Shown piece by piece: positions 8,308 to 64,000 of a stretch of 64,000 nucleotides of DNA. The stretch covers positions 18,804 through 82,803 of the forward strand of contig CAKSXE010000002.1 of NCBI GenBank assembly GCA_934514285.1. Reading direction: 5' to 3'. Source of the stretch: an uncultured Faecalibacterium sp. (GTDB taxonomy: Bacteria; Bacillota; Clostridia; Oscillospirales; Ruminococcaceae). The position numbers and the translations under genes are program-made. Below the pieces are notes generated by a model that searched no databases, had not been told where the DNA came from, and saw nothing but the letters and a program-made list of their open reading frames with translations. How positions within the stretch are numbered: position 1 is the stretch's first letter; each line of letters opens with the position of its first letter.

Positions 8308-8330
8308 TAAAACAGCATAAGGCTTTTCCA

Positions 8331-8361
8331 AGCCCCCCGCAGGGATGCGGGGGGCTTTTTG
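8331..8361 (+). terminator. rho-independent terminator after the transcarboxylase operon
   Basis: agccccccgcagggatgcggggggcttttt. Confidence 0.7.
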
Positions 8362-61096: not shown

Positions 61097-61930
61097 ATGG
61101 CAGGACGTTCAAATCCAAGACACGCACGCCGGAGAAGACAGGGCGGCCCGTCCGCTGCGACGGTCATCGGCCTTTTGGTGTGTGTCGTCTGCTTCAGTGC
61201 AGCATTTTTCCTTTGGAAAGCAGCGCTGTTTGGCTCTGGGCGAAATGAGAGCGGGGAAGAGCCTTTCCGGCCTGTAGTCGGCGACCCGCCCTACAGGGTC
61301 TGCATTGATGCCGGTCACGGCGGAAGCGACCCGGGCGCAAGGGGAGTCGTCGAAGAAAAAGAGATGACGGCCCAGACCTCTGAGGCTCTGCTTGCGCTGC
61401 TGGAGGCCGACCCTAATTACATCCCGCTGCGTTCCCGCGAAAGCTATGATGTCACCGCAAAGCCCAGCGAGCGGGCGGAGGCCATCAATGCCCAGAGCCC
61501 GCAGCTGCTGCTGTCCATCCACGGCAACTCCGCGCCGGAGGGTTCTGCCGCTGCAGGCTTTGAGTGTTATCCGTCCGTCCCGGGCCGTACATGGCATCAG
61601 GAGAGCTATTACTTCGCGCAGCAGCTGGCGCAGGGAATGCAGGCCGCAGACGCAAAGCTCCGCGGCCACGGCGGCATCCGGTACATTTATTATCAGGGCG
61701 AGGTAAAGCAGCTCGTAGAGAGCACCCATACCGAAGTAAGGGACGAGCGAAGCTTTACCTTGTTGGAAGATGTAAACTGTCCGGCGGTTCTGGCAGAACA
61801 GTGCTTTGTGACCAGCGAAGAGGACGTTGCAAAGTTTGGCAGCGAGGAAGGCTGTAAGACCGTGGCGCGCGTTTACTATGAAGCGATCTGCGCGTACTTC
61901 GGAACACAGCCGCTGGATATGCCGCTGTAA
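61097..61930 (+). CDS. N-acetylmuramoyl-L-alanine amidase (Amidase_3 family; CwlD-like)
   Basis: N-terminal TM; CIDAGHGG and LSIHGNS zinc-binding motifs. Confidence 0.6.
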   Translation: MAGRSNPRHARRRRQGGPSAATVIGLLVCVVCFSAAFFLWKAALFGSGRNESGEEPFRPVVGDPPYRVCIDAGHGGSDPGARGVVEEKEMTAQTSEALLALLEADPNYIPLRSRESYDVTAKPSERAEAINAQSPQLLLSIHGNSAPEGSAAAGFECYPSVPGRTWHQESYYFAQQLAQGMQAADAKLRGHGGIRYIYYQGEVKQLVESTHTEVRDERSFTLLEDVNCPAVLAEQCFVTSEEDVAKFGSEEGCKTVARVYYEAICAYFGTQPLDMPL

Positions 61931-62111
61931 AGTCTGATGCAATGGACGCTCGCATGAAAGCGGTCTTATCCAGCTGTATTTTACGGTGTCTGCCTGGCAG
62001 GCGATCCACGCGTCCAAAACGAAATGATATAAAAGGACAGCAGAGGCTCCCAAAACCTGCACCGAGGACGGAACGCAGGAGAAGGGGGCCTCTGTTTTTG
62101 ATTTTTATAAT

Positions 62112-62139
62112 ATTTCGTATAATGCAGGTTATACGAAAT
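62112..62139. other. dif-like 28-bp site: perfect 11-bp inverted arms around a 6-bp spacer
   Basis: ATTTCGTATAA-TGCAGG-TTATACGAAAT; the inner ATAA-N6-TTAT matches Xer dif architecture. Confidence 0.45.
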
Positions 62140-62551
62140 ACAGGGGAGCGAAAAAGCCCTCTTTTTCGGGTTTCGGGCCTTTCCGGCGGCTCCTGAGCCT
62201 TTTGGGCTGGCTGGGCCGTTTTTTCGTATTTTGTACAGTTGTGTTATTTGAATGCATTGCTTTGTATGTTTTTGCCGCTTTTTGTTACGCACGTCCGGTT
62301 GCTCGTAAAACCTTTTCTAACTCTAATGTCCAATTCTTTGCTGCTCGATTTGGGTGCGGCATACTTACAACAAGCGTTTCTTTATCTGTGCAGACCAAAC
62401 TGCTCTTGTAATACCACAATGCAGTCTCTTCATGGGGCCTGATCCATTCAGCATCATCTGCAAATACCTCATCATATAAAATGTTCGATACCAGCCCCCA
62501 GCCGCCGGTCAGGATAATATCCGGCTCATAAATGTGTTTGTTCCCATGTCA

Positions 62552-63745
62552 TCATTTGTCGGCGTTCTCCATATCGGCAAGGCTCGAAACATCCACCCGG
62601 AAGCCTTCCTGTGCGGCACCCTCAAAGGCTTCCATCGGGCCGTCCGGTGCATCATTTTCTGGCTCATCCGACGGAGAATCGGCAAATTCCCCTTTGCTCT
62701 CCCCTGTCTCCTTTGACGTTGTATCCAAGCTTGCCTTCTTGACTTCACCCAGCGGATTCTGCTCAATGGCTGCACGCACCTGAAATTCCTGCAGATGCGT
62801 ATAAATTTGAGTTGTGCCGACGCTGCTGTGGCCCAGAAGCTGTTTGAGGGTCAGAATATCCACGTTGCCAGTCTGATACATCAGCGTTGCGGCAGTATGG
62901 CGGAGTTTATGGGTGGAAAAACCGCGCAGACCCGCTGCTTTCATGGCACCGGTGACCAGCTGCTCTACCCTGCGGTTTGAGATTCGCTCCTTGCGCCGCC
63001 GGGTGATAAAGACCGCTCTCTCTTTGGGGTTCAGGCCCTCCATCGTGTTGCGCTTGTTCAGATAGATCTGCAATGCCTCCTTGCAGGCATCATTCAGGTA
63101 GACCATCCGCTCTTTATGGCCTTTGCCGAACAAACGGATCTGCCGCTGTTCCATGTCGATGTCGCCGAGGTCCATGCCGACAAGCTCCGAAAGACGCATC
63201 CCGCAGTTCAGAAACAGCACGACCATGCAGTAATCCCGCTCCGGGAAGTCGCTCTGGGTCTGGGTACTTTCCAGAAGGTCCATGGACTGCTCTGCCGTCA
63301 GGTACTTGGGAAGGACTTTGTCCTGCTTGGGCGGCTTGATGGATGCCGTCGGATTCTCTTTGAGCAAATCTACCTGATTGACCAGATAATCATAAAAGCC
63401 GTGGAGGCTTGCCAGCCGCCGGGCCGTCGAAGACTTTTTGTTGCCGCACTCGCTGTTCAGAAAGTACAGATACTCATAAACGTCTTCCTTGGTCACACTG
63501 CCCCAGAAAGCCGTATCAAGCCCCTTGGGGTCGATGTCCTTTATCTCGGTATCGTCTGTTACAAGGCCGCGCCGACGCTTCATAAAACGGCTGAAGCTGC
63601 GCAGGTCGCAGTAATAGCTGAAGGCCGTGTTGGGGCTTTTGCCTGCGATGACTTCCAGATAGCGCACATACGCGACGATGTCCGGCGAAGCGTCATCAAA
63701 AGGCTTATGTTTTTCGGGATTTTTTTCGTCCAGATAAATCGACAT
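62552..63745 (-). CDS. tyrosine-type site-specific recombinase (Xer-like) with acidic ~85-aa C-terminal extension
   Basis: N-terminal SAM-like core-binding domain; catalytic R, HxxR and Y (HKLRHT, TQIYTH); long D/E-rich tail after the catalytic Tyr. Confidence 0.75.
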   Translation of the reverse strand: MSIYLDEKNPEKHKPFDDASPDIVAYVRYLEVIAGKSPNTAFSYYCDLRSFSRFMKRRRGLVTDDTEIKDIDPKGLDTAFWGSVTKEDVYEYLYFLNSECGNKKSSTARRLASLHGFYDYLVNQVDLLKENPTASIKPPKQDKVLPKYLTAEQSMDLLESTQTQSDFPERDYCMVVLFLNCGMRLSELVGMDLGDIDMEQRQIRLFGKGHKERMVYLNDACKEALQIYLNKRNTMEGLNPKERAVFITRRRKERISNRRVEQLVTGAMKAAGLRGFSTHKLRHTAATLMYQTGNVDILTLKQLLGHSSVGTTQIYTHLQEFQVRAAIEQNPLGEVKKASLDTTSKETGESKGEFADSPSDEPENDAPDGPMEAFEGAAQEGFRVDVSSLADMENADK

Positions 63746-63763: not shown

Positions 63764-64000
63764 TCACAGACGGTCAGATTTCAGGGCATGGATGGCGTCC
63801 GAAATATAGGCGGCGCCGACAAGCTTCATGCCGGGATAATCGGCGGCATTCAGATGAGCAAGGCTGTGCTTTGGTACGACAGCGCGCTCAAAGCCGATAC
63901 GTTCCGCTTCCCGCAGGCGCTGCTCCAGATTCGGCACGCTGCGTATCTCGCCGCCGAGGCCGACCTCACCGATGGCAATGAGCTTATCGCTCACGGGGCA
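63764..64000 (-). CDS. radA: DNA repair protein RadA/Sms, C-terminal Lon-like domain (partial, runs off window end)
   Basis: IAIGEVGLGGEIRSVPNLEQRLREAERIGFERAVVP matches the RadA C-terminus. Confidence 0.7.
   Translation of the reverse strand, partial: CPVSDKLIAIGEVGLGGEIRSVPNLEQRLREAERIGFERAVVPKHSLAHLNAADYPGMKLVGAAYISDAIHALKSDRL

Follow-up and report, generated by a model that had tools for sequence, protein, structure and literature searches.

A Xer-like recombinase gene and its putative dif-like site in Faecalibacterium

The DNA analysed here, referred to as the window, is a stretch of 64,000 nucleotides from an uncultured Faecalibacterium, a genus that is among the most abundant human gut commensals. 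Close to its right-hand end, a gene for a Xer-like tyrosine recombinase of 397 residues (62552–63745, minus strand) lies beside a perfect palindrome at 62112–62139. An earlier note, made from the sequence, had read the pair as a Xer-like gene with a dif-like site. This is largely right with respect to the site, which proved to be conserved and genetically coupled to the gene; the resemblance to other single-recombinase systems that the note had suggested did not stand for the protein and is taken up below.

The recombinase gene and the adjacent palindrome

The recombinase gene starts 18 base pairs (bp) past the stop codon of radA, directly downstream of that gene as had been proposed. The window end cuts radA, leaving its 3' end (63764–64000, minus strand; C-terminal fragment 63764–63994), and the full-length gene is present in L002, one of the loci used for comparison (L numbers denote these loci and contigs). 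The radA–recombinase neighbourhood recurs in Faecalibacterium, in several Gemmiger-clade loci and in Pusillibacter.

The assignment of the recombinase is based on Pfam, NCBIfam, alignments and the predicted fold. Pfam identifies a Phage_integrase domain (E 1.7e-37) and a SAM-like N-terminal domain (Phage_int_SAM_1). The catalytic R-K-H-R-H-Y residues are found in the motifs GMRLSE (from residue 182), GKGHKER (207), HKLRHT (279), LGHSS (304) and QIYTH (313, with the catalytic Tyr315), all of which align to XerD and XerA. The protein therefore has the two domains and the catalytic set by which Xer recombinases are generally recognised. The best NCBIfam models are XerC, XerD and XerA, and every curated cut-off is missed: XerC (TIGR02224) gives 216.3 bits against a cut-off of 335.15, XerD (TIGR02225) 205.2 against 329.6, XerA (NF040815) 193.4 against 220 and XerS (NF003462) 148.2 against 267. 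Nine relatives with 41–82% identity likewise remain under the cut-offs, and annotation pipelines name members of the family XerC or XerD.

Among solved structures, the nearest by sequence are XerA (5hxy, E 1.7e-27) and XerD (1a0p, E 3e-27), with XerH (5jjv, E 1.3e-11) far behind and no Cre among the matches at E below 1e-10. The AlphaFold model is of moderate quality, with a predicted local distance difference test score (pLDDT) of 69.9 and a predicted template modelling score of 0.47, and was used for the fold family and for tail disorder only. Its closest folds are XerA (5hxy and 4a8e), followed by integrases (Brujita, lambda) and XerD; Cre comes no higher than 37th, with E around 1e-5. The resemblance to XerS and XerH put forward in the earlier note thus fails for the protein, whose sequence and fold are nearest to XerA and XerC/D, and holds solely for the linkage of gene and site, which recalls XerS/difSL.

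The recombinase extends 82 residues beyond Tyr315 and about 60 residues beyond the usual end of Xer proteins. Alignment and disorder prediction place this acidic tail at residues 338–397 (codons 62555–62734, minus strand), and its last 60 residues contain 17 D/E and 4 K/R, in agreement with the D/E-rich extension of about 85 residues past the catalytic tyrosine that had been noticed before. Residues 341–397 are predicted to be disordered (pLDDT below 50). An exhaustive search of cluster representatives yielded one Faecalibacterium cluster of proteins of about 400 residues; the next full-length relatives (40–49% identity) are mostly 320–350 residues long and align to about residue 337 only. The tail contains LDTT at residue 340 and a conserved motif, GPMEAFEGAAQEGFRVDVS, at residues 369–387. 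Across 67 Faecalibacterium sequences the linker is variable, and both the LDTT block just past the catalytic domain and a short block near the end are kept. As for the latter, human-gut lineages have GPMEAFEGAAQ[ED]GFR[AV]D[IV]S, and basal lineages, represented chiefly by chicken-derived genomes, have GEPLPDILPSL. The tail is real and specific to the Faecalibacterium cluster, and from the model and alignments it is predicted to be disordered and motif-bearing, a pattern that looks like that of a flexible tether bearing a short linear interaction motif.

The palindrome was recovered in a scan of the window as ATTTCGTATAA-TGCAGG-TTATACGAAAT, an 11-6-11 core located exactly where the earlier note had placed it. 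The symmetry stays perfect one base further outward on each side, so that the putative core recombination site, delimited by its presence, rarity and conservation, is a 12-6-12 palindrome without assigned strand (TATTTCGTATAA-TGCAGG-TTATACGAAATA, 62111–62140). The 64 kb contain only one other perfect palindrome with arms of 11 bp or more and a spacer of 0–10 bp, a G+C-rich hairpin at 8330–8357; by our calculation, about 0.015 would arise by chance for each spacer length (64,000 × 4^-11).

The site lies in the interval between the recombinase gene and a gene for an N-acetylmuramoyl-L-alanine amidase (61097–61930, plus strand), which according to the gene calls is the last of a plus-strand block converging on the site. 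The distance from the recombinase stop codon is 412 bp, close to the 410 bp estimated before. The interval measures 621 bp and has 46% G+C, compared with 61% across the window. The AT-rich gap of about 600 bp described in the earlier note is therefore confirmed in length and composition; it is not empty, as it holds a frameshifted open reading frame (ORF) of 90 residues, described below. In size, layout and intergenic A+T-rich placement, the site matches the general description of dif (about 28–31 bp, inverted arms of about 11 bp, spacer of 6–8 bp). A degenerate half-site-like stretch is also seen at 62220–62247 (TTTTCGTATTT-TGTACA-…), on the recombinase side of the full site and 80 bp away from it, with the resemblance confined to one arm and part of the spacer.

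Conservation of the site and its surroundings in Faecalibacterium

The nearest genome loci come from Faecalibacterium prausnitzii and related species. With up to three arm mismatches allowed, 62 of 70 Faecalibacterium genome loci have a single site downstream of the recombinase; of the remaining eight, at least four stop within about 0.7 kb of the gene. Together with a metagenome scan, 126 Faecalibacterium-type loci bear the site and its characteristic flank, with one copy each and never more, a count that applies per locus (126 loci, 1.6 Mb) and not per chromosome. The Faecalibacterium-type metagenome matches all share conserved flanks, and the recombinase stands beside the site on each contig that extends as far as the gene. 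There, the distance from the recombinase stop codon to the site ranges from a few hundred bp to about 4 kb and is mostly 300–870 bp.

In gene orientation the consensus is RTTTC[GA][CT]ATAA-CGTGCA-TTATACGAAAY. The amidase-side arm, TTATACGAA (62112–62122 in the window), is near-invariant, and the recombinase-side arm (62129–62139) differs among species at three positions, namely 1, 6 and 7. Of the 126 loci, 96 have the spacer CGTGCA; the lineage of the window has CCTGCA. Altogether 34 distinct site variants are found across these loci, beside hypervariable cargo. The two arms differ from each other at 0–3 of 11 positions and are identical in 18 loci, including the window. Orthologous loci, in which the earlier note had sought a test of the site, keep it across the genus and replace it by a co-diverged palindrome in the sister clade. 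The site is not due to chance.

A conserved asymmetric flank, delimited by its information content, adjoins the recombinase-side arm at 62140–62162 (no strand assigned; ACAGGGGAGCGAAAAAGCCCTCT, or on the other strand …GGGCTTTTTCRCTYCCCTAW followed by the site). About 20 bases are conserved, with up to 2 bits at positions −15 to −2, and in Faecalibacterium they form a C-rich/T-run block (…TTTTTCRCTYCCCTAW) abutting the arm. In every Gemmiger-clade locus, one arm is bordered by a related C-rich block, which reads CCCTAT or, on the opposite strand, ACAGGGAGG and occurs in either orientation, and a similar C-rich run precedes the Pusillibacter site; examples are located at L237 9716–9740, L240 9978–9990 and, for Pusillibacter, L244 1164–1180. 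The flank is possibly an accessory or asymmetry-defining element. Apart from the spacer nothing else is strongly asymmetric, so the flank may tell the two ends of the site apart.

The stretch that separates gene from site is hypervariable cargo of 0.1 to 4 kb (the 90-residue ORF, a GNAT protein, a YhfC protease), which sits beyond the conserved flank and not at the crossover region. In the window, comparison with the other loci shows that this cargo includes the frameshifted remnant of the 90-residue accessory ORF (62293–62555, minus strand; MMTWEQTHL* followed by …YEPDIILTGGWGL…MPHPNRAAKNW…). This ORF (…YEPDIILTGGWGL…MPHPNRAAKxWTLELEK…), which runs over the stop codon of the recombinase gene, is intact in L003 (1210–1482) and L039 (11374–11619) and reduced to short remnants in L012 and L037, with no trace in any other locus compared.

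Three lineages have extra copies of the conserved arm, TTATACGAAAT with 0–1 mismatch, always in one orientation, on the stretch from the recombinase gene to the full site (L009 11237; L010, L013 and L061 11219; L057 11608; L060 11612; L058 14803). Each copy is improbable by chance. In L009, L010, L013 and L061, the arm copy forms the start of a probable GNAT-type ORF (ATGGATTATACGAAAT), an assignment without confirmation from domain searches.

In basal Faecalibacterium lineages, several of them chicken-derived (L055–L059, L062 and L066), 2–4 kb of ordinary accessory genes are found between recombinase and site (for example, L058 11222–15086). In the annotated loci L058 and L056 these include a YhfC protease, a GNAT protein and a polyketide-cyclase-like protein, all co-oriented with the recombinase. 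An origin of the cargo through integrative mobile elements exploiting Xer (IMEX) was considered and rejected, as the order of degenerate and full sites is not the one that simple integration would produce, and the conserved flank separates the cargo from the site.

A different arrangement is observed in one Faecalibacterium metagenome contig, where an Mrr-type restriction protein and a phage-type integrase (Arm-DNA-bind_4 plus Phage_integrase) are located beside the yajC-tgt-queA block (L250 294–3380). Compared with L002, these genes take the place of radA and the Xer-like gene, which suggests a mobile-element insertion or a rearrangement.

Related loci and mobile elements

The sister clade, consisting of Gemmiger and relatives, has orthologues with about 45–50% identity to the recombinase. 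One of these, P0127 (48% identity), represents the Gemmiger group, a member of which is annotated as 'tyrosine recombinase XerC [Gemmiger formicilis]'. Each of the nine sister-clade loci has a perfect palindrome, ATTTCGCTAAA-N6-TTTAGCGAAAT, 24–234 bp upstream of the orthologue. Its arms agree with those of Faecalibacterium in their outer halves (ATTTCG...CGAAAT) and differ in the inner ones (CTAAA versus TATAA). Site and protein have thus diverged together and are still linked, the behaviour expected of a cognate pair. Beyond the site, the genes vary from locus to locus (radA-SseB-DUF7916, an ABC transporter, or spoIVA-bofA), and the orientation of the site with respect to the recombinase gene is not constant either. 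Because the far-side genes differ and the site orientation flips, the site marks a point at which gene order breaks down.

A more distant relative with 42% identity, annotated XerC, is found in Pusillibacter faecalis on a 504-kb record deposited as a plasmid (NZ_AP023421.1), which carries housekeeping genes in the region examined. Here the order is radA, a dif-like site, a 5-kb microvirus prophage, a second dif-like site and xerC. The prophage encodes a major capsid protein and 'phage ORF5' and has no annotated integrase. The first site, of 28 bp, is ACTGAACAATT-GTATTA-TTTTGCTCAAT (L244 1181–1208) and the second ATTGAACAAAA-TTTTTA-TTTTGTTTAAT (L244 6453–6480); they form a direct repeat with 21 of 28 positions identical. 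Integrase-less microvirus proviruses flanked by dif-like repeats have been interpreted as users of the host Xer machinery (PMC3091885). By analogy, a microvirus between dif-like repeats suggests that the site beside this gene family is a Xer site exploited by mobile elements, and makes the Pusillibacter prophage a candidate Xer-exploiting phage in Clostridia. The IMEX-like arrangement of dif repeats is seen at the Pusillibacter locus only; in Faecalibacterium there are phage-like contigs with matching sites and the extra half-sites described above.

The pattern TTCGYATAA-N6-TTATACGAA has a wider distribution, with occurrences in 36 viral contigs and in some 50 metagenome contigs that are not from Faecalibacterium and differ widely in G+C. 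In at least ten of the latter it lies within 250 bp of a tyrosine recombinase gene (26–34% identity), and in the viral contig L081 it is 38 bp from such a gene. Taken together with the family members on Clostridium botulinum plasmids, these occurrences make the recombinase gene with its adjacent palindromic site look like a general replicon-resolution or integration module, of which the Faecalibacterium copy would be a fixed chromosomal form.

Three phage-like IMG/VR contigs (L091 1692–1715, L099 823–846 and L112 1218–1241; 53% G+C) carry GTTTCGCATAA-TACCTA-TTATACGAAAT internally, with arms equal to Faecalibacterium variants and a different spacer. They encode a major head protein and an endolysin, and no tyrosine recombinase was found in these fragments. 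The contigs may come from a phage that uses the host recombinase for integration or multimer resolution. Separately, a 2.4-kb metagenome contig with 38% G+C (L165, Ga0315545_1043616) contains a putative array of five sites of the lox/dif-like pattern between 102 and 2089, spaced 410–590 bp apart; one of them is CCTTCGTATAA-CTATAC-TTATACGAACC.

Interpretation and known Xer systems

The genes around the site converge on it from both sides. In the 62 kb to its left, about 82% of called gene bases are on the plus strand, that is, directed toward the site, and the same share (about 82%) faces it in the roughly 20 kb on the other side. There, the recombinase, radA, an unnamed ORF, tgt and queA point toward the site and an asd-dapA-dapB-ACT block points away; beyond the dap block, at least 9 kb are again directed toward it (tyrS, recN, argR, nadK, dxs, ispA and xseBA). 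When 52 loci are pooled, the share of gene bases that face the site is 69% on one side and 83% on the other. Gene orientation thus supports a replichore junction at this position, and because of this convergence the site is likely to be at the replication terminus.

The palindrome is very probably the cognate site of the adjacent recombinase, judging from their linkage and joint divergence. The module as a whole is probably a linked Xer/dif system at the replichore junction, and a single recombinase would probably serve it. The arms are near-identical, which points to one binding specificity, and no second tyrosine recombinase is found in the window. Among the 21-kb Faecalibacterium loci, L046 alone contains a second, weak match (26% identity, about 8 kb from the site).

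From the established chemistry of tyrosine recombinases, two copies of one recombinase would bind the two near-identical 11-bp arms of each sister site, and four protomers would synapse two sites. The non-palindromic 6-bp spacer (CGTGCA, or CCTGCA here) would align the sites in parallel, and two sequential pairs of strand exchanges through a Holliday junction would convert a chromosome dimer into monomers at division. That one enzyme would suffice is suggested by the symmetry of the arms; dimer resolution at the terminus is the presumed task. The order of strand exchange could be set by the asymmetric flank, the spacer or both, and the acidic tail could be a regulatory or partner-binding peptide, for example in coupling to an FtsK/SpoIIIE-type translocase or in auto-inhibition. 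In a broader form, which we advance tentatively, Faecalibacterium, Gemmiger and related Oscillospirales may possess an undescribed single-recombinase Xer system in which the gene travels with its own palindromic dif, the flank, and not a difference between the arms, provides asymmetry, the tail (in Faecalibacterium) controls activity, and microviruses and other small gut phages hitch-hike without an integrase.

Several observations weigh against a single-recombinase dif system at the terminus. The sign of the GC skew flips at the site in 52 of 53 loci; these loci are largely syntenic and the effect tracks gene orientation. In the first 50 kb of the window the skew has the opposite sign, with a C-rich coding strand, and at third codon positions the coding strand shows about −0.2 for genes of both orientations, so that codon usage dominates. 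As the flip follows gene orientation in syntenic DNA and is confounded by codon usage, we regard GC skew as uninformative as a terminus test. In two complete genomes the site falls at 58.6% and 71% of the length, counted along the record as deposited. Complete-genome records with the site include NZ_CP170812.1 (near 1,837,047), NZ_CP186691.1 (near 2,216,812) and OZ007013.1 (near 2,861,303). Furthermore, the arms are unequal in most species and one is better kept, as in two-recombinase dif sites. Uneven arm conservation is, however, also a property of the single-recombinase sites difH and difSL. Members of the family on 13.7-kb Clostridium botulinum plasmids imply that it is not dedicated to chromosomes, and no comparable site was found within 2.5 kb of the 44–46%-identical Clostridia relatives L071–L080.

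Two further candidates were examined and discarded. Skewed 7- and 8-mers in the 62 kb that might resemble FtsK-orienting polar sequences or SpoIIIE recognition sequences (KOPS/SRS) are headed by codon-driven words, GAGAAGGG occurring 6 versus 2 times. On a C. botulinum plasmid that carries a family member, palindromes are too numerous in the A+T-rich DNA to be interpreted.

The strongest competing explanation is a chromosomal dif served by two recombinases, the adjacent one being a divergent XerC- or XerD-type protein and an unlinked Xer paralogue taking the other arm. The near-invariance of one arm and the variation of the other at three positions resemble the XerD and XerC arms of canonical dif, and both the pipeline annotations and the top NCBIfam matches name XerC and XerD. 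The scores are nevertheless far under the equivalog cut-offs (216 versus 335 and 205 versus 330). In the window, in 18 of 126 Faecalibacterium loci and in nine of nine sister-clade loci, moreover, the arms are identical over 11–12 bp and not discriminable, which leaves no difference for two specificities to read. With no second tyrosine recombinase in the window and the L046 match as the only one in the 21-kb loci, we consider this arrangement unlikely.

Another possibility is that the module has a different role, as a domesticated integrase with its attachment site or as a landing pad for cassettes or phages, and that the true dif and Xer proteins are encoded elsewhere. The hypervariable cargo, the extra arm copies inside it in three lineages, the same class of site beside distant recombinases on phage and plasmid-like contigs, and the similarity of the arms to loxP are all compatible with such a role. 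It is made improbable by the fixation of the module in one chromosomal neighbourhood (radA, tgt/queA) in at least three genera, by the lack of mobile-element genes flanking it, by the insertion of the cargo past the conserved flank rather than at the crossover region, and by the presence of one full site per locus, which leaves no partner nearby for inversion or excision. For the same reasons of conserved synteny and missing mobile-element genes at the locus, the suggestion in the earlier note that the palindrome might be the attachment site of a genomic element finds no support here.

That the palindrome is a mere RNA or DNA hairpin (a transcript-end stabiliser, terminator or repressor operator) with no part in recombination is scarcely credible: it does lie between convergent transcription units, has a stable RNA fold (z-scores −3.9 and −5.1) and, in our reading, keeps G–U pairing in one-arm variants on the plus strand of the window, but these variants are uncompensated and break the pairing on the other strand through A–C mismatches (where the L018 version folds no better than shuffled sequence, z −1.4), the loop is conserved, neither strand has a T-run or is called a terminator, the sister-clade palindrome stands upstream of the gene in either orientation, and this class of site travels with tyrosine recombinase genes. 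Scans of 61800–62700 for Rfam families, promoters and terminators gave no relevant match. The uncompensated variants, the absent T-run and the absent Rfam match argue for a protein-binding DNA site and against an RNA hairpin.

We found no description of a Xer/dif system for Faecalibacterium or its relatives in the searchable literature, and searches directed at Clostridia likewise yielded none. Clostridia are barely covered by dif surveys: the main one has six Clostridium entries only, at least one of them without a prediction, and two species failed. Single-recombinase Xer systems are few (XerS, XerH, XerA and XerL), and each has informed the order of strand exchange and its coupling to cell division. 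If the interpretation is correct, the site would mark the terminus, which is of use in assembling genomes and in estimating growth rates from metagenomes, and would be a predicted integration site for integrase-less phages. The compact recombinase/site pair could provide genetic tools in organisms that are hard to engineer, and the perfectly symmetric site would be a natural experiment on directionality.

Among known systems, XerC/XerD-dif of Escherichia coli (RipX/CodV in Bacillus subtilis) shares with the Faecalibacterium module the protein family, the catalytic residues and the 11-6-11 layout with an ATAA-N6-TTAT centre. The window site has 18 of 28 positions in common with E. coli dif. The module differs in missing both cut-offs by more than 100 bits, in its identical or near-identical arms and in the linkage of gene and site.

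The resemblance to Cre/loxP and lox-like systems is of another kind. The site shares 23 of 28 core positions with phage P1 loxP (arms ATTTCGTATA versus ACTTCGTATA), and A[GC]TTCG[TC]ATAA-N6-TTATACGAA[CG]T is found beside a tyrosine recombinase gene in many phage-like and metagenome contigs. The recombinase, however, is not Cre-like, and the likeness is confined to the site arms; the Faecalibacterium locus is chromosomal, conserved and syntenic, and its spacer is read as 6 bp instead of 8 bp.

XerH/difH of Helicobacter and Campylobacter and XerL/dif of Legionellales are comparable as systems in which a single recombinase resolves dimers. XerH shows distant sequence similarity only (5jjv, E 1.3e-11). 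XerL, placed alongside by its description, was found through a mobile element mimicking dif (PMC9765430), a route of discovery that parallels the clue offered by the Pusillibacter microvirus. XerS/difSL of streptococci and lactococci likewise consists of a single recombinase gene linked to its own site on a Firmicute chromosome (PMC1914069, PMC5357621). There, difSL is an atypical asymmetric site of 31 bp, whereas the Faecalibacterium site is symmetric and of 28 bp, the gene and site are separated by a few hundred bp to about 4 kb with variable cargo, and the XerS score is 148.2 against 267.

In archaea such as Pyrococcus and Thermoplasma, one Xer-type recombinase, XerA, acts on a 28-bp near-palindromic 11-6-11 dif, and some archaeal genomes hold xerA and dif together as a module (PMC5357621). 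XerA, for which FtsK independence is a reported feature, is the best solved-structure match to the recombinase by both sequence and fold, and the site architecture matches as well. The Faecalibacterium system differs in being bacterial (Clostridia), in its 60-residue acidic tail and in missing the XerA cut-off (193.4 versus 220). It reaches the score of no named Xer family, and is closest to archaeal XerA/dif in protein and site architecture and to XerS/difSL in linkage.

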